The position numbers were made by a program, and so were the translations under genes. The notes below the pieces were generated by a model, which saw only the letters and a list, made by a program, of their open reading frames with translations, ran no database searches and was not told the origin of the DNA. A stretch of DNA of 14,049 nt from an uncultured bacterium (GTDB lineage: Bacteria > Cyanobacteriota > Cyanobacteriia > Cyanobacteriales > CAWUOF01), in the NCBI GenBank assembly GCA_963923765.1, contig CAWUOF010000044.1:1-14049 (forward strand), given 5' to 3'. Below are positions 90-12,063 of this stretch, piece by piece (the first letter of the stretch is position 1; each line of letters begins with the position of its first letter).

Positions 90-1946
90 TTATTTCATAA
101 AATACCATAATTTAATAGTTTTATCCTTACTGCCACTAGCGATAATTTTACCACTAGAATCAATGGCAACAGCAGAAATAGAATTTAAATGACCTGCTAA
201 ACTAGCTATTTCTTTGCCTGTATTTATATCCCATAATTTGATAGTTTTATCCCAACTACCACTAACTAAATTTTCGCTATTAGGAGTAAAAGCGAGTGCT
301 ACAACTGACCAGGAATGACCTAAAATTGTCGAAATATTCTCTCCGGTTTTTATATCCCATAATTTGATAGTTTTATCATCGCTACCACTAGCTAAAATGT
401 TGCCATCGGGACTAAAAGTAACTACAAAAACCGACCATAAATGACTAATAAAAGTATAGTGCAACTGCGGGCGAAATTCTGGGGAAAATCGCTTTAAATC
501 CCACAAACGAATAGATCTATCAAAGCTTGCACTAGCTAGAAAATTACCACAGGGACTAAATGCAACACAAGTTATTTGCAAACTATGACCGGTTAAAGTA
601 TAAATTTCTTTACCTGTATTTACATCCCATAATTTGATGGTTTTATCCCAACTACCACTAGCTAAAAGTTTACCATCGGGGCTAAAAGCTATAGATTTAA
701 CTGCCTGTAAATGTCCGCTAAGAGTATATATTTCTTGTTGAAGATTCCATAGTTTTATAGTTTTATCATCGCTACAGGAGGCTAATATATTACCATCAGG
801 ATTAAATGCTACACAGTTAATCCTATGGGAATGACCAGTGAGAATATTATTAATTGTTCCTGTTTCTATATTCCACAGGTAAATATTTTTGTCTTCGCTA
901 CCACTAGCCAGGATATTATCTTTAATGGCTATAGTATTAATATTAGATAATACTCCAGCAGGATTGGTAAGGGTTTTTAGGCATTGCCATTGTAAAGGAG
1001 GAATAGGGCTTTTTAGAGTTAGGTTTTTTGGCTGGTGTTTAATTTGAATGCCGAATTTCTGCATAGTTTCTAAGACTTCATCAGCCGATCGAAATCTACG
1101 ATTAAGGGCATTTTGTAATAATTTATCTAAAATTTCTCCTAAATTATTACTAACTTTATTTATGGTATAATCTCGCCATGCCCAGCAATCGTTAATAGCA
1201 TCAAATAAATCAAAAGGGGGAATACCTGTTAATAAATAAATACAGGTGACACCTAAACTATATAGATCGCTGGCAAAAACGGCTTTTCCCTTGGTTTGTT
1301 CCGGGGCTATATATTCAGGACTACCAATGCTAGTTCCGGTTTGAATTGGGGTATTTTCTGTTACTAATTTAGCTGCACCAAAATCAATTATGACAAATTG
1401 ATTAGAGGCTTCTGGGTTTTCTATGATATTTCTACGAATAATATTTTTAGGTTTAATATCTCTATGAATTATTTGATGTTGGTGAATAAATTTTAATACT
1501 GGTAATATTTCTGTTAAAAGTTGCCAAATTTGGGTTTCATTAAATGTACCTTCTTCCTCTAAAATTTGATTTAAATTCATTCCTTCTATATATTCTTGTA
1601 CTAAATAAAGATTTTCATGTTCAGTAAAATGTGTGATTAAATTAGGAATTTGGGGATGTGGGTTTAGTTGTTGTAGAAGTATTGCTTCTTGTTGAAATAT
1701 TTGTTGGGCTTTTGGTGCTGTTTCTGGGGTAAGATTTTGCGAGGAAAATTGTTTAATTATGCAGGAAAATGCAGGAGATTGACTTTCATCTAATGCGATA
1801 AATGTGCGATTCATTCCGCCTCGATCGATTAATTGAAGCGGGCGAAAACGTTGCTGTAGAAGTAAAGGAAAACCGCAAAAATGACAAATTTGATTTGTAT
1901 CGGGATTTTGCGGTTTTTGACATTCTGGATTAAGGCAATAGGTCAT
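90..1946 (-). CDS. Serine/threonine protein kinase with an N-terminal Cys-rich zinc-ribbon-like segment and a C-terminal seven-repeat WD40 beta-propeller
   Basis: 618-aa ORF. Seen in translation: Hanks kinase motifs HRDIKPKNI (catalytic loop), DFG, APE and a VAIK-type lysine in CIIKQF. The N-terminus CLNPECQ...CHFCG has four Cys spaced like a zinc ribbon. The C-terminal half has seven units of the form GH..x..(S/N)PDG.iLASGS.DKTIKLWD. Established knowledge: this kinase-WD40 architecture is common in filamentous and unicellular cyanobacteria. The Gly-rich loop is degenerate (DRGGMN instead of GxGxxG). Confidence 0.9.
   Translation of the reverse strand: MTYCLNPECQKPQNPDTNQICHFCGFPLLLQQRFRPLQLIDRGGMNRTFIALDESQSPAFSCIIKQFSSQNLTPETAPKAQQIFQQEAILLQQLNPHPQIPNLITHFTEHENLYLVQEYIEGMNLNQILEEEGTFNETQIWQLLTEILPVLKFIHQHQIIHRDIKPKNIIRRNIIENPEASNQFVIIDFGAAKLVTENTPIQTGTSIGSPEYIAPEQTKGKAVFASDLYSLGVTCIYLLTGIPPFDLFDAINDCWAWRDYTINKVSNNLGEILDKLLQNALNRRFRSADEVLETMQKFGIQIKHQPKNLTLKSPIPPLQWQCLKTLTNPAGVLSNINTIAIKDNILASGSEDKNIYLWNIETGTINNILTGHSHRINCVAFNPDGNILASCSDDKTIKLWNLQQEIYTLSGHLQAVKSIAFSPDGKLLASGSWDKTIKLWDVNTGKEIYTLTGHSLQITCVAFSPCGNFLASASFDRSIRLWDLKRFSPEFRPQLHYTFISHLWSVFVVTFSPDGNILASGSDDKTIKLWDIKTGENISTILGHSWSVVALAFTPNSENLVSGSWDKTIKLWDINTGKEIASLAGHLNSISAVAIDSSGKIIASGSKDKTIKLWYFMK
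225..647. repeat. Intragenic direct repeats within the WD40 kinase gene: an identical 27-mer tatatcccataatttgatagttttatc at 225-251 and 351-377, plus a 2-mismatch copy at 621-647
   Basis: Seen directly in the sequence. The repeats correspond to the reverse complement of the codons for the conserved DKTIKLWDI blade motif of consecutive WD40 repeats. Confidence 0.8.
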
Positions 1947-2049: not shown

Positions 2050-4161
2050 TTATTTTCTATTAGCTAAATTATTATTTTCTGTAACAAATTCAGCAGTTAT
2101 CGGCGATGAATTTTCCAGAGCAGATGTTGATAATTCTTGTGGATTATTTGGCGTTTGATTTTGGGAATTTATAGGCATTTGTTTGCCGGTTTGATTCCAT
2201 AAAATCATGGTTAATAACCCATCAACTAAGCTGTTACTGCTGCCATTGTTACCACCGACTAATATATCGGGAATTAAGCGCACATGACGATCGCCTATTA
2301 TCTGCATTAATTGCATAGCTGTATAACTTTGTGCGCCCAAGGCTTCCACACCATTTTTATAGGTTTCTGCCTTAGCATTACCAGTAGCGCGAATAGCATC
2401 AGCTTCGGCAACGGCTTGTAATTTAGTAGCTTGGGCTTGACCTTCTGCTTGTTTAATTTGTGCTTTAGCTTTTAAGTCGGCAATGTTAACATTTTGCTCA
2501 TTTTTTACCATTTCTTGTTGAATATCAGCCAAGGAAGTTTCTCTTACTAATAGCTGCCTTTGTTGCTGTGCCATTTGCTGCACTTCATAGGTTTTACGCT
2601 GTTCTTCAGCTATTTTGCGATCGGTCTGGGTTTGCATTAGTTGGGATGGCGGTTGAATATCACCAATTAAAGTATCGATCGCCTGCACATCATAGGCACG
2701 CAAAGCTGTTTTAATATACTCAGCGGCTTCTGCTTGTCTCTCACTCCTAGCACTGAGGAAATCTAACACGGTATAATCTTGAGAAGAATTGCGGAAATAA
2801 TTACCTATAGTTGGTTCTAAAACATGATCTACTAAGTTTTGCATTAAACCAACACGAGATATTACTTTTGGTGCATCTAAAGCGCCGACATGGATAATTT
2901 GTGCTACTTCTAAATCAAAGGCAAAACCATCTTTTGACCGTACCGTTAACGAGGCAAGTTTAGAGTCATAATTATGTCTTTCTGTGCGGGCAGACCAGTT
3001 AAGAACTATATTAGTTGTTGGTACTAATTCAACTTTCATTACACGGGTATTAATAGGATGTTTACCGGGATAAAGTGGCTCATTCCATACACCTTTATGT
3101 CCGGGTTTAACCAAATCTCCATGAGTGAAAGCAGCGCCGCTAATATCTTCATGGGCTTTACCAACATAAGAAATAACTACACCCACATAACCAATGGGAA
3201 TTTCAGTCATATTGACTTGTTCAACTTGCACAAACCAAGGGTTAAGATTCCAAGACCCGGAAAGTAACACTTGTTCTTGTAAACCTCGTCTACCTCCACC
3301 GCTAATAAATTTCTGTCCGTTTTGAAAGTTTTCGTGACCAGAAATAACCGGACCTGCAATTTCTCCATCTTCAATAGGCATCCCGTCTAAAGTGGTAACA
3401 ATACCAACTTTATCGGAATCAACAGAATAAATATGTAATTTATCAGCAGCAATGCCATTTTTATTAGCATTACTAGCAGTAATTACCGTAAATAATGCCG
3501 TATTAATCCGATAACTTCCAGCCGTCAAAAATCCCATTTGCCGACCTTTTTCACCCCCATGAGTTAAAAAATTTCTGGCATTTTGGAAGTTATCGCATTC
3601 TACTACTTTGCCAAGAATTCTTTCTGGGGGAATTGATGCACCATCGGCGGCGACAATTAGGGCTATTTGTCCTTGGGGAATAACAATTACTGATTCTTTG
3701 CGGACTTCATATTGCCAAGGCCAAAAGCCCCAATGCCAGCCAGGGGCGAGGGTATCTGCTTGATAGCCGGCTTCCCCATGAAGGGCAATTAAACGACCGG
3801 GAGGTAAACTATTTTTAGCGAATTTTTTAGCAACTATACCAACTTCTCTTTCACCGATAATAACTAAACCGGAGGTAAAGCCAATTATACCTATTCCACC
3901 CAGAAAAATTATTGGCACAATTAACCAAATAAATCCGCCTATTTCCATTAATTGATAGTTTACTTGAGCAAGGTTTTTTGGCGTATTATCAGGGTTAATT
4001 TGATTGTAATTAAGGCTTATAGCTGTGGTTTCGTTAATATTGTAATTTTGGGAGTTATTAGCATTAGCACCAGGAGAAGTAATAGAGGCGATCGCTAAAC
4101 TTGCTGCTACTGAAGCTACTAACCATTGGGGCTTTTTCAGTAGTTTTTTAAAAATTTTCAT
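2050..4161 (-). CDS. Flotillin-like SPFH/band-7 family membrane protein (YqiK/FloT-like) with an extended N-terminal region
   Basis: 703-aa ORF. Seen: an N-terminal hydrophobic signal-like segment (WLVASVAASLAIASI), an Asn/Gln-rich linker, then a TM helix (FIWLIVPIIFLGGIGIIGF) followed by an SPFH-like core (EREVGIVAKKF...). The C-terminal half is a long Ala/Gln/Glu-rich coiled-coil (AEEQRKTYEVQQMAQQQRQLL...AKAQIKQAEGQAQATKLQAVAEADAIRATGNAKAE) and ends ...IPDILVGGNNGSS, which resembles the flotillin C-terminus. The SPFH region looks roughly twice the usual length and may be two tandem SPFH-like segments (inference). Confidence 0.85.
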   Translation of the reverse strand: MKIFKKLLKKPQWLVASVAASLAIASITSPGANANNSQNYNINETTAISLNYNQINPDNTPKNLAQVNYQLMEIGGFIWLIVPIIFLGGIGIIGFTSGLVIIGEREVGIVAKKFAKNSLPPGRLIALHGEAGYQADTLAPGWHWGFWPWQYEVRKESVIVIPQGQIALIVAADGASIPPERILGKVVECDNFQNARNFLTHGGEKGRQMGFLTAGSYRINTALFTVITASNANKNGIAADKLHIYSVDSDKVGIVTTLDGMPIEDGEIAGPVISGHENFQNGQKFISGGGRRGLQEQVLLSGSWNLNPWFVQVEQVNMTEIPIGYVGVVISYVGKAHEDISGAAFTHGDLVKPGHKGVWNEPLYPGKHPINTRVMKVELVPTTNIVLNWSARTERHNYDSKLASLTVRSKDGFAFDLEVAQIIHVGALDAPKVISRVGLMQNLVDHVLEPTIGNYFRNSSQDYTVLDFLSARSERQAEAAEYIKTALRAYDVQAIDTLIGDIQPPSQLMQTQTDRKIAEEQRKTYEVQQMAQQQRQLLVRETSLADIQQEMVKNEQNVNIADLKAKAQIKQAEGQAQATKLQAVAEADAIRATGNAKAETYKNGVEALGAQSYTAMQLMQIIGDRHVRLIPDILVGGNNGSSNSLVDGLLTMILWNQTGKQMPINSQNQTPNNPQELSTSALENSSPITAEFVTENNNLANRK

Positions 4162-6671: not shown

Positions 6672-7202
6672 ATGCACCTATATATTAAACCAGAAAACCA
6701 AGAAAACATCCTAGAAATTGAGAAAGTAGTAATAGCTGCTTTTGGTGGAAGTGCGGAAGCAAAATTGATAAAAACTATAGGAAAATCATCTAATTTTATT
6801 CCCGAATTATCTTTAGTAGCAGTAGAAAAAGAAAAAATTTTAGGGCATATTTTATTTAGCCCTATAGTCATTGAGAATGAAACGAAAAGTACAATTTCAA
6901 AAATATCAGCATTAGCCCTAGCCCCTTTAGCTGTAATTCCTGCACGTCAAAAACAAGTCATTGGCAGTGAATTAGTGCGATTAGGTTTGACAAAATGCCG
7001 AGATTTAAATTATAATATTGTAGTAGTTATCGGTCATCCAGAGTATTATCCTCGCTTTGGGTTTCAGACAGCAAAAAAATTTGGTATAGCCGCACCTTTT
7101 CCTGTTCCTGATGAAGCGTTTATGCTATTGGAATTGCAACCAGATGTTTTGATGGGTATAAGTGGAATAGTAAAATATCCAGCATATTTTAATGAAGTTT
7201 GA
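6672..7202 (+). CDS. GNAT-family N-acetyltransferase (YhbS/COG3153-like)
   Basis: 176-aa ORF. Seen: HILFSPIVIEN...ALAPLAVIPARQKQVIGSELVRLGLTKCRDLNYNIVVVIGHPEYYPRFGFQ. This matches the GNAT acetyl-CoA-binding core (the Q/R-x-x-G-x-G/A-type segment QKQVIGSEL) and the C-terminal YYxRFGF of YhbS-like acetyltransferases (established family features). Confidence 0.8.
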   Translation: MHLYIKPENQENILEIEKVVIAAFGGSAEAKLIKTIGKSSNFIPELSLVAVEKEKILGHILFSPIVIENETKSTISKISALALAPLAVIPARQKQVIGSELVRLGLTKCRDLNYNIVVVIGHPEYYPRFGFQTAKKFGIAAPFPVPDEAFMLLELQPDVLMGISGIVKYPAYFNEV

Positions 7203-7262: not shown

Positions 7263-7847
7263 ATGAAATTAGAATCTTTACTAAGACTAAATAGAGTAAT
7301 TCGAGCGATCGGCTTTGATGATGTACCATTTAAACGTCGTCGAGGTAGTAATGTACCAATTGCTGGTGTAATTTGTGCCGATACTCGTTTTGAAGGTATG
7401 GTATGGGGAAAAATACGCCAAGATGGATGGAATGCTACAGATGTTATTTGTAATTTACTTTTACCTAGCAAATTTTTACCCCAATTAGATATAGTTTTAC
7501 TTGACGGTATTTCTGTAGGCGGTTTAAATATTATAGATTTACCCCAATTGTGCGATCGTCTCGAAATTCCCTGTGTTGCTGTTATGAGACGCATTCCCGA
7601 TATTACCGCCATGACTACAGTAATTAACCGCTTACCCCAAGCCAAAAAACGCTTAAAAATACTACAACGCGCAGGAATTATTCACGCCTATCCCCCCTTC
7701 TTTTTTCAAGTTTGCGGAGAAACTCCCGATATCATAGCAGCTACTTTACAGCGTCTTACTGATTGTGGTAATGTGCCAGAATCATTACGTTTAGCCCATT
7801 TAATTGGTGCAGCAGTAGTGAAAGGAGAAAGCGGCAGACAAGCATAA
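7263..7847 (+). CDS. DUF99/UPF0215 family protein (archaeal-type; the family is annotated as endonuclease dU-like)
   Basis: 194-aa ORF. Seen: an N-terminal IGFDDVPF (the family's GxDD motif), then VICADTRFEGMVWGKIRQDGWNATDVI (DG.DaT) and IVLLDGISVGGLNIIDL (mLDGi..aGfN.vD). This is as I recall the DUF99 consensus. The call is from memory of the family and is unverified. Confidence 0.6.
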   Translation: MKLESLLRLNRVIRAIGFDDVPFKRRRGSNVPIAGVICADTRFEGMVWGKIRQDGWNATDVICNLLLPSKFLPQLDIVLLDGISVGGLNIIDLPQLCDRLEIPCVAVMRRIPDITAMTTVINRLPQAKKRLKILQRAGIIHAYPPFFFQVCGETPDIIAATLQRLTDCGNVPESLRLAHLIGAAVVKGESGRQA

Positions 7848-8000
7848 TTTCATATATAATAGACTTATTGCAGAAGATAGAAAAATTTTTAACAGGAAAC
7901 AATAATAAGTTTGGATGAATTGCATTAAAATGTTCATAATCAAATTAAAGACACGATATCATCGCAAAAACTTATTTTTAGAATTTTGATAAGCACACTT

Positions 8001-8582
8001 TCAAGTTAAATTAGCAACGGTTTTGATTAATTCATCGCGAGATAATTGCATAATTAATTTAACGCTTTCTTTTTGGGATATTTGCATTAAAGGTTGTATA
8101 ATTTGGTATAATTCCTGATCAATTTTTCCAAATCTTATTCTTATAATGTTTTCGATGTTTATCGGTGGAAGATCATCCAAAGCTAATAAAAATTTCTCGG
8201 AACCAGTATAAATATCTTCTAAACAGAGGAGGTGATAAACAAAAATACCCTCCTCTATTCTGGGATAGCTTTTAAGGCGAGGCAAAAATTTTGAATTGTA
8301 ACCAACACCAGCCAGCATAATTCCTATTTGAGATTTTGATTTCTCTAAGCCAGCATAGAATTCATCAGCATATTTAGAGCCTAAAGACTCTTGCGAAAGT
8401 TTGCATTGGAAATAAATCAAACGGTCTGCAACTGTACCATAACCATCAATAAGATCATCAGCGCCAGACTTTCCGGGCGTTAATCCTAGCATGATAGCAT
8501 AGGCTTGTCCATCACGTTGTTTAGTAGCAGAATTGGCGCGGGTTTTACTATTAATTATGGCTCGCAACTGCATTGCATCCAT
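8001..8582 (-). CDS. Standalone Mrr-type (Mrr_cat) PD-(D/E)xK restriction-endonuclease-fold protein with no N-terminal DNA-binding domain
   Basis: 193-aa ORF. Seen: GADDLIDGYGTVADRLIYFQCK matches the Mrr catalytic core (G-D-x-G-I-D-x ... v-Q-c-K, with Q in place of E as in Mrr itself). It is followed by SQIGIMLAGVGYNSKF...EEGIFVYHLL, which corresponds to the Mrr_cat distal strands (gilvttsgFs...i.lidg). Only about 35 residues precede the nuclease core, so there is no winged-helix N-domain. The start is 7 nt after the stop of the upstream RHH gene, which suggests translational coupling. Confidence 0.7.
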   Translation of the reverse strand: MDAMQLRAIINSKTRANSATKQRDGQAYAIMLGLTPGKSGADDLIDGYGTVADRLIYFQCKLSQESLGSKYADEFYAGLEKSKSQIGIMLAGVGYNSKFLPRLKSYPRIEEGIFVYHLLCLEDIYTGSEKFLLALDDLPPINIENIIRIRFGKIDQELYQIIQPLMQISQKESVKLIMQLSRDELIKTVANLT

Positions 8583-8589
8583 TCTACTA

Positions 8590-9069
8590 CTACCCTACTT
8601 TATTCATTTCGATCAATCGTAAATAGAAAATTTCTACTCCTAGAATTGCAATTTTAGAAACATCACAGAGTAAATTTTGGTTTTCGAGTTCATCAAAAAT
8701 TTTTTGACTCAACTCAAGTTTTAGTGTCGTACAATCATCGTCAGAATTTATTTCTTTTGGATAACCCTTAAGACTTTGAATTTTAATTTCTTTGTCTTTA
8801 GCGTAATTGATAACATAGTTAATCGCACTATGCAATATGTTATCAGTAGACAATGCTAAATAATTATTGAGATTTCTAAATTTTGCTTGCATTGAGAGAG
8901 GAATTGTCATAGATACAACTGTTTCTGTATTTTCGCCATTAGCTGCACGATTTTCACGATGTTGCTCAACGATGTTATGTGCTCTTTGGCTAACGCCGTT
9001 AGTTGCTTTATTTAGATGCTCAGTCGCAGCTATGGATGAGTTGACTGGATTTTGATGTTGACTAGACAT
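8590..9069 (-). CDS. Ribbon-helix-helix (CopG/Arc/ParG-like) DNA-binding protein with a disordered N-terminal tail and a roughly 65-aa C-terminal extension
   Basis: 159-aa ORF. A GGAGG Shine-Dalgarno lies 11 nt upstream of the ATG, and the start is 21 nt after the ParA-like stop. Seen: an N-terminal polar, low-complexity 50 aa, then a beta-strand VVSMTIPLS, helix-1 MQAKFRNLNNYLA and helix-2 STDNILHSAINYVINYA. This is the RHH fold pattern by inference; I recognize no named family. The C-terminal extension (KEIKIQSLKG...LLCDVSKIAILGVEIFYLRLIEMNKVG) is not part of classical ParG or omega proteins. Confidence 0.55.
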   Translation of the reverse strand: MSSQHQNPVNSSIAATEHLNKATNGVSQRAHNIVEQHRENRAANGENTETVVSMTIPLSMQAKFRNLNNYLALSTDNILHSAINYVINYAKDKEIKIQSLKGYPKEINSDDDCTTLKLELSQKIFDELENQNLLCDVSKIAILGVEIFYLRLIEMNKVG

Positions 9070-9090
9070 AACCTATTTAACCTCCGGAAT

Positions 9091-9780
9091 TTACTCCTTA
9101 ATTAAATCAATAAAATAAGTTTTTGTATTTTCTAAATTTGCATATTTCCAAATGTATTTTTTTTCTTTCAAAGATTTTCGTGTTTCTGCGGCTAGAGATT
9201 GCATTGGTGTACAAATTTCAACTTGAATAGAAAAATTATCAATATTCAACTCATTCTCTATTTCCTCACTGCTAAGTCCCAAAGGTACAACTTTTATAAT
9301 TGGGTTGTAATAAATACTAGTTAATTGCTGAAATTTAATTTCACGTTCCAAATCACTAATAAAAACAGAAATATCTTCAATGGCATGAGACTGTGACTCA
9401 GAAATTGGTACTAGAAAAATATTGGGTAGAGAGTCACTTAGAATCGTAAGAGCATCTTCCGGCGGACTATCTGCATCAATAACGACATAATCATACAATT
9501 CCCAGTCTCGTTTAGTTATGGGTTTAAATCGAGAACCTTTAGATTGTGGTGGATTCCAGCGCAAATCAATATTATTCGGAAGAGATAACTCTTTTTGAGG
9601 GATATCTGGCCTTGAACCACTAAAAAATTTCCAAGAATCTGGTCGAGGATCGCAATCCACGAGCAAAATTTTTCTGATAGTTTGCTCATTAAGGATACCT
9701 GCAATATGAACAGCAAGAGTTGTTTTCCCTGCTCCTCCTTTGATGTAATTGCATAAGATAACACGAGTTTTCCTAGTCAT
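9091..9780 (-). CDS. ParA/MinD/Soj-superfamily deviant Walker A ATPase (small type-Ib ParF-like size, no N-terminal HTH)
   Basis: 229-aa ORF. Seen: deviant Walker A KGGAGKTT within NYIKGGAGKTTLAVHIA, an A' motif KILLVDCDPR, a Walker B YDYVVIDADSPP, then ALTILSDSLPNIFLVPISESQSHAIEDIS, which matches the ParA hydrophobic core. It is the first gene of a three-gene minus-strand cluster. Confidence 0.85.
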   Translation of the reverse strand: MTRKTRVILCNYIKGGAGKTTLAVHIAGILNEQTIRKILLVDCDPRPDSWKFFSGSRPDIPQKELSLPNNIDLRWNPPQSKGSRFKPITKRDWELYDYVVIDADSPPEDALTILSDSLPNIFLVPISESQSHAIEDISVFISDLEREIKFQQLTSIYYNPIIKVVPLGLSSEEIENELNIDNFSIQVEICTPMQSLAAETRKSLKEKKYIWKYANLENTKTYFIDLIKE

Positions 9781-10240
9781 AGCTTTTATGATAATCCTAG
9801 TTGCTATTTAGACAATACCCCAGCTTAAAACTCAAAAAACGGATTTTTGGATATTCTGGTTAATTACATCTATTTGCATGATCATAACATACAGGGTAAA
9901 ACATAAAATGCTTATATAGCAATAATTTAAAGTATGATTGCTCTGTGATATAGCTAAGTGTTGTATTTTATTAATATAACACAAATTAACAAGATTTTGG
10001 TGAAAATCAAAAATAATCTTTCTATCGCCAGTATCGAGGGTGATAGTGAAAATACTTAACCCAAAAAAATAGTACAGATTGTTTTAGACTCAGAAATATT
10101 TTCTTGTCGAGACTTAGACGAATTTTCGTGGTAAATAGGGTTAAAAACCATACTAGGCAAGGAAAATACGTCAAACGGGTAAAAAAACTCAAACCCATAC
10201 CCATCAAGGTTTTAACTTTTTTCGAGGTAAAACCTATACC

Positions 10241-10280
10241 AAAAAAGGCTTTCAGCCTTTTTCCCATATTTTTTTTCTAA
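10241..10280. terminator. Bidirectional rho-independent terminator hairpin (9-bp perfect stem AAAAAGGCT/AGCCTTTTT, 3-nt loop) flanked by an A-run on the 5' side and a T-run on the 3' side
   Basis: Seen: aaaaaaggctTTCagcctttttcccatattttttttc. The stem is 10242-10250 paired with 10254-10262. A T-tract follows on the plus strand. Because the A-tract precedes the stem, the minus strand also reads stem plus T-tract. No annotated gene ends here on either strand. Confidence 0.5.
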
Positions 10281-10506
10281 GTCCCGCCAAAAAACTGCAA
10301 GATTATGACATTTGTATGTTCAATATCCTTGCACGTGGTTGGCGGGGTCAATTTTGAAATCCATCTCCAAATCTCTTATTTTGCATACTTTGTCACACCT
10401 CAATTCAATTTGTAGACTTATTCACCGAGTTCTATGTTATAATAATTTATAATAAATATAATAAAATTATATAATCAAATAATAATTACTACTATAAACA
10501 AAAACA

Positions 10507-11211
10507 ATGTCTAACCAAGAATCACCAGAAATCGAACAATTTTTAACTACAGTTCAATTATTTAAAGGCATATCTGAACAACAAATCAACGCCTTAGCCA
10601 ATATTGCCATAAAACAAACATATTCCAAAGGAGAAACCTTATTTTTACAAGGTGATGAAGGTAAAGGATTTTTTATAGTAATTTCCGGCAAAGTTAAAGT
10701 ATTTAAAATTTCACCAAAAGGAAAAGAACAAATACTAGAAATTTTCAGCAATGGCGAACACTTTGCCGAAGTACCAGCATTTGATGGACAATGTTTTCCG
10801 GCATCAGCAACAGCATTAGAAACAACACAAGTATTATTTTTCCCTCGGATAGACTTTCTGGAATTATTACAAAAATACCCAAACTTAGCCATTGCTATGT
10901 TAGCCATTTTTGCCCGTCATTTGCGACAATTTGCCCATAAGATCGAAAATTTATCCTTAAAAGAAGTACCCGAAAGACTAGCCGCATATTTGCTGTATCT
11001 TCAGGAACGCCATAATTTCAGCGAAACAGTAGAATTAGATATGACTAAAACACAACTAGCGGCATTTTTGGGTACAATTCCAGAAACTATATCGAGGGTA
11101 TTGGCAAAATTATCAACAGAAAAATTAATTATTATCGATGGATCTAAAATTAAAATATTAGATCGCAACCGTTTGGAAACTCTAGCAGGTTATAGAGATA
11201 ATTTAGTGTAA
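10507..11211 (+). CDS. CRP/FNR-family transcriptional regulator (cNMP-binding beta-roll plus C-terminal HTH); not NtcA
   Basis: 234-aa ORF. Seen: the cNMP-binding-domain pattern (LFLQGDEGKGFFIVISGKVKVFKISPKGKEQILEIFSNGEHFAE), a dimerization helix and a C-terminal HTH (MTKTQLAAFLGTIPETISRVLAKLSTEKLI). A 240-bp AT-rich leader with several TATAAT-like hexamers lies upstream. There is no Shine-Dalgarno sequence. Confidence 0.9.
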   Translation: MSNQESPEIEQFLTTVQLFKGISEQQINALANIAIKQTYSKGETLFLQGDEGKGFFIVISGKVKVFKISPKGKEQILEIFSNGEHFAEVPAFDGQCFPASATALETTQVLFFPRIDFLELLQKYPNLAIAMLAIFARHLRQFAHKIENLSLKEVPERLAAYLLYLQERHNFSETVELDMTKTQLAAFLGTIPETISRVLAKLSTEKLIIIDGSKIKILDRNRLETLAGYRDNLV

Positions 11212-11238
11212 AATAACTTCAGTTAACAGGACATATCC

Positions 11239-12063
11239 TTGAGTACAGAAAATTCTAACCAAAATCATCAGACAATATCGCCCTTAGCGCCAGCAGTTTA
11301 TATAATTGGTGCCGGTCCTGGCGATCCGGAATTACTGACAGTGAAAGCTTATAAAATATTAGCTAAAGCCGATGTAATTTTATTTGCAGACTCTTTAGTA
11401 CCAAAGCAAATTTTAACAGGAGTACGTCAAGATGCAGAAATTATTAGAACTGCGAATAAAACCTTAGAAGATATATTACCAATAGCGATCGCCAAAGTCA
11501 AAGCAGGTAAATCAGTTGTACGTTTGCATTCCGGTGATTTAACCCTATATAGTGCTATTCACGAACAAATGCAAATTTTAGCAGAAGCAAACATACCTTT
11601 TGAACTTATACCAGGCATCAGCGCTTTTCAAGCAGCCGCCGCTAAAATTCAAGCAGAACTTACCATACCAGAATTAGTACAAACTATCATTCTTACCCGC
11701 ATAAGCGGCAGTGCTTCCGCAGTTCCGGAAGCAGAAGAATTAGCCAGTTTAGCAGCCCATAAAGCCAGCCTTTGCCTTTATCTTAGCGCTAGACATATTG
11801 AAACAGCCCAGGAAAAACTATTACAACATTACCCAGCAGATACCCCAGTAGCAATATGTTTTCGCGTAGGTTGGCCCGATGAAAAAATTATGATTGTACC
11901 CCTTGACAAAATTGCCAGCATTACTAACAAAGAAAACCTAATTAGGACTACTCTTTATCTAATTAGTCCAGCATTAGCGGCAGGAAAAACGCGATCGCGC
12001 CTATATCATCCCGAATATAATCACATTTTCCGCCCATCTCATTCCAGCCAAACTATTTACTAA
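11239..12063 (+). CDS. cobM: Precorrin-4 C11-methyltransferase (CobM/CbiF; tetrapyrrole (corrin/porphyrin) methylase family), TTG start
   Basis: 274-aa ORF starting at a TTG. Seen: VYIIGAGPGDPELLTVKAYKILAKADVILFADSLV is the class-III SAM-dependent tetrapyrrole methylase N-terminal motif. The length and the RLHSGDLTLYSAI...IPGISAF segments match CobM/CbiF rather than CobA or CobI. Confidence 0.85.
   Translation: MSTENSNQNHQTISPLAPAVYIIGAGPGDPELLTVKAYKILAKADVILFADSLVPKQILTGVRQDAEIIRTANKTLEDILPIAIAKVKAGKSVVRLHSGDLTLYSAIHEQMQILAEANIPFELIPGISAFQAAAAKIQAELTIPELVQTIILTRISGSASAVPEAEELASLAAHKASLCLYLSARHIETAQEKLLQHYPADTPVAICFRVGWPDEKIMIVPLDKIASITNKENLIRTTLYLISPALAAGKTRSRLYHPEYNHIFRPSHSSQTIY

Follow-up and report, generated by a model that had tools for sequence, protein, structure and literature searches.

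Type Ib partition loci, such as ParF/ParG of TP228 and delta/omega of pSM19035, combine a small Walker ParA with a ribbon-helix-helix (RHH) centromere-binding protein, and omega of pSM19035 also regulates the epsilon/zeta toxin operon. In Agrobacterium, VirC1 is said to have been described as ParA/MinD-like by Atmakuri in 2007, and VirC2 reportedly has an RHH fold, as found by Lu in 2009. VirC1 and VirC2 are regarded as Par-like proteins recruited to DNA processing and not to partition (PMC8406263). In cyanobacteria, recent xenology has been diagnosed from two signs taken together, scarcity of the highly iterated palindrome HIP1 and atypical codon usage (Delaye et al. 2011, PMC3025956; on HIP1 see also Elhai et al. 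2012, PMC3497702). Here we analyse a stretch of 14,049 nucleotides from an uncultured bacterium of the Cyanobacteriales (contig CAWUOF010000044.1 of assembly GCA_963923765.1), called the window below, in which a cassette of three genes, coding for a ParA-type ATPase, a putative tandem RHH protein and a putative nuclease, stands between a DUF99 gene and a gene of the Crp/FNR family. With a probability of roughly 0.6, the whole is best explained by a mobile three-gene operon that sits at a breakpoint behind DUF99 and would work by the nuclease mechanism proposed below.

The central part of the window, AT-rich cyanobacterial DNA with a GC content of about 34% overall, is arranged as follows.

7263..7847, plus strand: DUF99/Endo_dU gene, the native left flank (Pfam Endo_dU, 4e-49)
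7848-8000: spacer between DUF99 and the cassette, 153 bp, GC 24%
7860-7869, plus strand: TAGACTTATT decamer on the left, 13 nt past the DUF99 stop codon
8001..8582, minus strand: cassette gene 3, putative nuclease, 193 aa
8590..9069, minus strand: cassette gene 2, putative tandem RHH protein (p159), 159 aa
9091..9780, minus strand: cassette gene 1, ParA-type ATPase, 229 aa
9781-10506: gap between the cassette and the crp-family gene, poor in open reading frames (ORFs), 726 bp, GC 30%
10413-10422, plus strand: TAGACTTATT decamer on the right, 85 nt before the crp ATG
10507..11211, plus strand: Crp/FNR-family regulator, the right flank (Pfam cNMP_binding 6e-27, HTH_Crp_2 6e-19)

The gaps between the three cassette genes measure only 21 and 7 nt, and therefore they form one operon. 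An earlier note on this DNA, made from the sequence by eye, had already called an ATPase, an RHH protein and a nuclease here, followed by a 726-bp non-coding stretch, and our follow-up upholds both the gene calls and the ORF-poor gap.

The strongest argument for mobility comes from other genomes. A first outside copy was found by tblastn against plasmids, and the same three-gene operon is now known to us from at least nine other cyanobacterial loci, with different neighbours each time:

Synechococcus elongatus UTEX 3055, 89-kb plasmid: ATPase, 147-aa homologue of p159 and nuclease, with Abi, a tyrosine recombinase, a RelE/ParE pair and a type I restriction fragment as neighbours
GCA_000380225.1: ribBA, cassette, Npun_R2479
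Phormidium yuhuli AB48: aldo-keto reductase, cassette, Uma2
a metagenome lineage: cassette, then DUF433
Cronbergia: Rce1-like gene, cassette, LpxD
Aphanizomenon: DUF3146, cassette, a 303-aa gene
a second metagenome lineage: cassette, then ApeA-HEPN
Cuspidothrix: flavodiiron genes, cassette, VanY
Anabaena azotica: Band_7, cassette, EVE

Overall this makes at least ten distinct contexts, one of them on a plasmid, with four different sites within Nostocales alone, so patchy a distribution in differing contexts being what is expected of a mobile islet. The architecture is conserved throughout (ATPase of about 215-239 aa, RHH protein of about 144-165 aa, nuclease of about 152-156 aa, small gaps), and decayed cassettes exist at three loci (L137 5292-5813, L140 7714-8818, L141 7655-8846): one Aphanizomenon strain has a broken middle gene, and both the ATPase and the nuclease are cut short in Anabaena azotica and in a second strain of Cuspidothrix. 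These copies therefore speak of gain and loss. Only some of the loci have neighbours of a defence type (Abi, ApeA-HEPN, type I and type IIG restriction-modification genes). The families of the nuclease and of the RHH protein are very small, and their source-named members are all cyanobacterial; homologues of the nuclease form 24 clusters among 5.8 billion proteins, and an exhaustive profile search returned 63 representatives of its family among 1.84 billion. A viral-contig scan, tblastn against phages and a PHROGs search gave no sign of phage carriage of the RHH protein or the nuclease.

In the nine loci outside the window the cassette also differs from its surroundings in composition. Their flanks hold 133 HIP1 sites and their cassettes none, where 15.6 were expected (product of the probabilities of zero sites, P0, about 5e-8), and cassette GC is 5-17 points below that of the flanks in 9/9 loci, the cassette being the lowest-GC segment of the locus in seven of the nine. 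At five loci the nearest HIP1 sites lie 109-270 bp from the cassette ends, which limits the unit to about 1.7-2.2 kb, and at the other cassettes the accompanying DNA is short, 41-227 bp on the upstream and 23-407 bp on the downstream side. The limits of the 2.66-kb island that had been drawn at 7848-10506 are therefore not supported, and the foreign unit is likely, as far as these comparisons go, to measure about 1.8 kb instead.

At the locus itself, the cassette coincides with a break in gene order. Scans of genome and metagenome contigs for DUF99 gave 114 related loci (Floridaenema, Aerosakkonema, Oscillatoriaceae and others), all of them at most 76% identical at DUF99, and neither crp nor the cassette adjoins DUF99 in any of the 114. 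The order RnfD-DUF2330-DUF99 is kept in only two (L003 and L008), and after DUF99 these carry, in place of the cassette, GroEL and a CorA-like gene, both of which are absent from our contig. As synteny with the two relatives ends at the DUF99 stop codon, the cassette stands at a synteny breakpoint; remnants of the relatives' DUF99-downstream genes were not found in the spacers. Exact-protein matches were returned from the same population only, whose four assemblies (99.8-99.96% identical) all carry the cassette without indels. In a further metagenome relative (L127, 5590-7603) the DUF99 gene itself is split in two by an insert of about 1.4 kb, which is possibly an insertion sequence.

From these data it is logical to suggest that the cassette 8001-9780 was probably acquired horizontally at some time, although when is a different matter. 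Of the recent horizontal acquisition claimed by the earlier note, the horizontal gain is supported by the nine or more other loci and by their HIP1-free, low-GC cassettes, whereas the recent date is not supported, in view of host-like composition and of the distance of the homologues: the nearest are 63% identical for the ATPase, 39-45% for the RHH protein and 75-76% for the nuclease, composition is no outlier, and the cassette is present, free of indels, in all four assemblies. Identity to the window nuclease is 65-71% for copies named Phormidium/Planktothrix and 40-47% for those of Nostocales.

The ATPase is of the small ParA/MinD type with a deviant Walker motif and has no N-terminal helix-turn-helix (HTH). 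In Pfam it matches AAA_31 (2e-10) and CbiA (5e-9), both above the cutoffs, and MipZ (4e-6). Its match to NCBIfam ParA_partition (5e-9) scores 35.9 against a cutoff of 180, and the protein is therefore to be taken as a member of the superfamily and not as a ParA_partition equivalog. The motifs KGGAGKTT (residues 14-21, with the signature lysine intact), LLVDCDPRPD and YVVIDADSPP place it among the ParA/MinD ATPases with deviant Walker A; PDB sequence matches are to MipZ and Soj, and the PHROG match is ParA-like. It is 61-63% identical to the cassette ATPases of three other loci (L092, L096, L097). A relation to McdA/McdB carboxysome positioning was considered, but three points speak against it: the partner is a folded RHH protein, a nuclease accompanies the ATPase in every case, and McdA itself is matched only weakly in PDB (E 0.0017-0.0018).

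The two other products are recognised through their predicted structures and motifs. The p159 chain begins with a disordered tail, continues with a long helix that bears the conserved motif GVSQRA, and then forms two beta-alpha-alpha units, at residues 51-92 and 113-157; its predicted structure identifies it as a single-chain tandem RHH DNA-binding protein, a pseudo-dimer of the type of TraY, VirC2 and DndE. A first homologue search with p159 alone returned only itself. Gene 3 codes for a stand-alone PD-(D/E)xK domain with the motif D42/D46-G ... Y-F-Q59-C-K61, which, judged by its modelled restriction-endonuclease fold, is an Mrr/FokI-like cleavage domain, and the catalytic D/Q/K residues are conserved among its homologues. 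A helical C-terminal extension of about 45 aa (about 8004-8141, residues about 148-193; AlphaFold2 pLDDT, the predicted local distance difference test, about 89-95) is found in the window nuclease only, all 23 homologues ending about 8 residues past the LPxL motif. Neither the RHH protein nor the nuclease had a significant match in sequence-profile searches of Pfam, NCBIfam, PHROG and PDB, Pfam Mrr_cat staying below threshold for the window copy. The link between genes 2 and 3 comes from nature: four RHH-nuclease fusions (P0091, P0093, P0109 and P0120, of 259-296 aa) occur among the 63 representatives and are recovered by hhalign at 98.4% and 98.3% probability (E 4.6e-15 and 1.3e-14), which, by the Rosetta-stone argument, suggests that genes 2 and 3 act as one DNA-targeted nuclease unit.

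We propose that 8001-9780, probably with fewer than 200 bp to either side, would be a self-contained operon moving among cyanobacteria. Its RHH protein may recognise a DNA site or structure and recruit the cleavage domain, which lacks a DNA-recognition domain, so that the two would form a two-subunit FokI-like endonuclease. The ParA-type ATPase would serve as a DNA-bound ATP switch, stimulated by the N-terminal tail of the RHH protein in the way of type Ib ParA/ParG or of VirC1/VirC2, and may position or gate the nuclease. The biological role would most likely be one of conflict, either defence against incoming DNA or an addiction and stabilisation module, which we suggest because the distribution is rare, patchy and decaying and because some loci have defence or mobile neighbours. 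The domains of the cassette are known ones, their combination is uncharacterised, and no described defence family matched it. We may even suggest an undescribed cyanobacterial DNA-conflict system in which ParA gates an RHH-targeted nuclease and the lack of HIP1 is possibly functional (self-avoidance, if the system senses HIP1 methylation or structure), but this extension we regard as doubtful.

Several observations weigh against a mobile operon with the proposed mechanism. Among the 114 DUF99 loci, the closest of which reach at most 76% identity at DUF99, no empty site was found, that is, no locus with DUF99 adjoining crp, and no consistent direct, inverted or terminal repeats flank the ten cassettes compared. 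The cassette ATPases of Nostocales (L135 6860-7522, L136 6831-7484) read DGGVGKTT and have lost the signature lysine, and in the natural fusions the catalytic lysine of YFQxK is replaced by asparagine (for example FFQSNLRK), so these fusions may be inactive or use a shifted lysine. None of the three proteins had a PADLOC match (PADLOC-DB 2.0) at E <= 0.01. HIP1 can also be lost through selection, as is cautioned in PMC3025956, and its absence from the cassettes of every host, even at decayed sites common to two strains, could reflect selection or slow gain of HIP1 in place of repeated recent arrival. In this host, moreover, the composition of the cassette is unremarkable: GC at third codon positions (GC3) of its genes is 0.23-0.27 where the host ranges from 0.19 to 0.39, their codon-usage distance (Karlin) is no greater than that of other short genes, and 7848-10506 is only in the top 12-16% of equal-sized windows by dinucleotide (delta*) and tetranucleotide distance, other stretches of the window deviating more. 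The profiles of GC3, codons, dinucleotides and tetranucleotides, among which codon usage and k-mers had been named earlier as a way to check the island, thus match the host, and the deviant composition of an islet is absent in this window and present in the nine other hosts. Mobility signatures are missing too: Pfam and tRNA scans of the island gave no integrase, transposase or tRNA, the decamer repeat does not exceed chance, and an Rfam scan found no family, a snoU54 match at E 0.15 being noise.

The HIP1 gap, from which the idea of an island started, deserves separate treatment. Exact HIP1 (GCGATCGC) occurs in the window only at 4088, 11485, 11991 and 13619 (4 sites against 0.04 expected from shuffles), and ten sites differ from it by one mismatch (2287, 2617, 2675, 4467, 7214, 7305, 7552, 13226, 13943 and 14031). 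Neither kind occurs in 7848-10506, so the exact positions noted by eye and their absence from the island are reproduced; the list of one-mismatch variants is not, as none stands in the kinase, DUF2330 or cobM flanks, where some had been placed. The last HIP1-like sites to the left of the gap (7305, 7552) are in the DUF99 gene, and the crp-family gene has none either. The HIP1-like-free interval is 7553-11484 (3.9 kb), and it is not coextensive with the proposed island because it includes the native crp gene as a whole together with the end of DUF99 and the start of cobM. For the 2659 bp of the island, window statistics give P(0/4 exact) = 0.43 and P(0/14 exact and one-mismatch) = 0.053. A context of 23.2 kb, rebuilt from three other assemblies (99.84-99.96% identical, indel-free), holds 13 exact and 23 one-mismatch sites, and for a region fixed beforehand P0 would be 0.21 for exact sites and 0.0125 for all; since the stretch was chosen after seeing the data, it is the scan statistic that applies, with P(largest gap >= 3933) = 0.046. 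Exact HIP1 is missing from 34% of cassette-sized flank windows in this host. Its HIP1 density is 0.3-0.6 per kb, and the genome being as AT-rich as the cassette and poor in HIP1, the test has no power here. The density in 7848-10506 is not significantly below the window average, an outcome that the earlier note itself had said would refute its island; the HIP1 gap in this window is within chance and neither dates nor delimits an acquisition.

The earlier reading takes the full 2.55 kb, cassette and 726-bp gap together, as a recent site-specific insertion with the duplicated decamer at its borders, and we hold it to be very improbable. The decamer is indeed exact at both ends, just where it had been seen before, and no exact or one-mismatch HIP1 lies between its copies. 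Moreover, the 28 distinct positions of single-nucleotide polymorphisms (SNPs) that the four assemblies show in the window leave a tract of 4.2 kb, 7286-11498, without any (scan P = 0.001 with all 28 positions, and P = 0.03 after clusters are collapsed into 18 events), as recent spread could give. This tract nearly coincides with the HIP1-like-free tract and, in a sample of four assemblies and with native genes included, could mark a segment recently spread through the population by recombination. Both tracts, however, reach well past both decamers, and the decamer itself is at chance level: in Markov-1 simulations the 153-bp and 726-bp spacers share a direct word of at least 10 bp with P = 0.42, 22% of real window pairs at equal spacing share such a word, and 416 distinct 10-mers occur more than once in the window. 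On the right the decamer is 633 bp away from the start of the cassette and overlaps a -10-like hexamer before crp (TTGTCA-17-TAGACT, 10390-10418, by consensus scan). The nine other cassettes have short flanks without consistent repeats. With no integrase, transposase or tRNA at hand, host-like composition and no near-identical donor in the 5.8 billion proteins (the next best nuclease is 76% identical), neither a target-site duplication nor an att core finds support in the decamer, and both copies are judged a chance match.

It is unlikely, too, that no relevant horizontal event took place and that the three genes are long-resident accessory genes beside a chance HIP1 gap in an AT-rich genome with little HIP1, their changing neighbours being due to the low synteny of cyanobacterial genomes in general, even if the window agrees with this in several respects: its HIP1 deficit is not significant, composition is host-like, DUF99 keeps its own neighbours in just 2/114 related loci, and the similarity groups of the cassette roughly follow taxonomy. 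Long residence would leave unexplained why the cassette is HIP1-free and lowest in GC where host HIP1 is dense, why it takes four sites within Nostocales, why a plasmid copy stands beside Abi, a recombinase and a toxin-antitoxin pair, and why the family is extremely rare and patchy, with decayed copies. A remnant of an integrated plasmid, consisting of a type Ib partition module, a stabilisation nuclease and decayed plasmid flanks, could account for the order ParA then RHH, which is the type Ib layout, for the homologous cassette on the UTEX 3055 plasmid and for a 726-bp gap that is gene-free with orphan terminator-like hairpins. We think it quite improbable, as at least eight chromosomal contexts show the three genes by themselves, closely set among housekeeping genes and without other plasmid genes, and as the UTEX 3055 plasmid has a second ParA pair, beside its recombinase, so that the cassette need not be its partition system. 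Nor do the sequences upstream of the ATPase in eight loci hold a shared motif or the iterated centromere-like repeats of a type Ib locus. Compared with all three alternatives, a mobile operon at the DUF99 breakpoint is the reading we prefer.

How much of the 726-bp gap would belong to such an operon can be judged from the following elements.

9781..9830, minus strand: probable cassette promoter, TTGTCT-16-TATCAT (9815-9788), shortly before the ATPase start codon (consensus scan)
9831..10506: rest of the gap, up to the divergent crp-family gene
10236..10352: structured element, a 9-bp hairpin (10242-10262) followed by a T8 run, then a long hairpin (10281-10348)

By its sequence, 9781-9830 is the probable promoter region of the cassette, and to judge from other hosts some 50-200 bp of the gap would suffice for this purpose. 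Spacers elsewhere being short (41-227 bp upstream), most of the gap is not demonstrably cassette; 9831-10506 presumably holds the crp promoter and leader. This part showed no credible ORF and no Pfam, tRNA or Rfam match, and no second copy of its sequence exists in the 23-kb contig or the other loci. The structured element has a minimum free energy of -37.3 kcal/mol (z = -5.3 on the plus and -4.85 on the minus strand against shuffled sequences), and its hairpin 10242-10262 with the T8 run is terminator-like on the plus strand. A crp leader, a small RNA and the orphaned 3' end of a lost gene are candidate origins.

The remaining genes of the window are these.

90-1946, minus strand: kinase-WD40 gene, at the window start
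minus strand: flotillin, next after kinase-WD40
RnfD-like, DUF2330 and GNAT genes, in that order between flotillin and DUF99
cobM, flavin reductase and MIF genes, in that order downstream of the crp-family gene

The GNAT acetyltransferase gene (6672-7202), between DUF2330 and DUF99, is missing in the two relatives that keep the RnfD-DUF2330-DUF99 order and may be a second lineage-specific insertion beside the cassette. The kinase-WD40 gene holds 13 of the 28 SNP positions, four of them within 30 bp (1716-1744), which suggests repeat-driven variation or assembly collapse in the WD40 repeats.

The useful result of our analysis is a comparative one, a very rare ParA/tandem-RHH/Mrr-like operon that behaves as a mobile unit and is HIP1-free and AT-rich in every host sampled. 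If it is a defence or addiction system, a ParA-gated nuclease would be added to the known repertoire, and it would help to learn how foreign DNA gathers HIP1 sites or is kept free of them. The locus also teaches that HIP1 counting has almost no power at 34% GC and 0.3-0.6 HIP1 per kb, and that a HIP1 gap together with a 10-bp repeat makes a weak case for recent insertion.

Compared with the HIP1-scarce islets of cyanobacteria (PMC3025956), the cassette is alike in being a patchily distributed, HIP1-free, low-GC segment between HIP1-bearing native genes, clearly so in the nine other hosts; it differs in that the signal is not significant in this host and in that no integrase, tRNA or repeat boundary accompanies it. 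The nuclease resembles the Mrr, MspJI, AspBHI and FokI domains of type IIS, IV and ISP enzymes in its predicted fold, in the D...QxK motif and in having, like the FokI domain, no specificity of its own, whereas here the domain is free-standing, of about 150 aa, beside a presumed DNA-binding partner and without a methyltransferase. With type Ib pairs the cassette shares a small ParA without HTH, followed by an RHH protein whose flexible N-terminal tail carries a conserved arginine, and with delta-omega-epsilon-zeta the linkage to a potentially toxic third gene. Unlike these, its RHH protein would be a single-chain tandem pseudo-dimer and not a homodimer, no centromere repeats were found, the copies are mostly chromosomal, and the third gene codes for a nuclease domain that is sometimes fused to the RHH protein. 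From VirC1/VirC2 of the Agrobacterium Ti plasmid and from TraY of the F relaxosome it differs in having no relaxase, oriT or type IV secretion genes nearby, and similarity to VirC1 in sequence is marginal (E 0.09 for the window ATPase, 1e-4 for the plasmid copy); the partner in this case would be a PD-(D/E)xK domain in place of a HUH relaxase.

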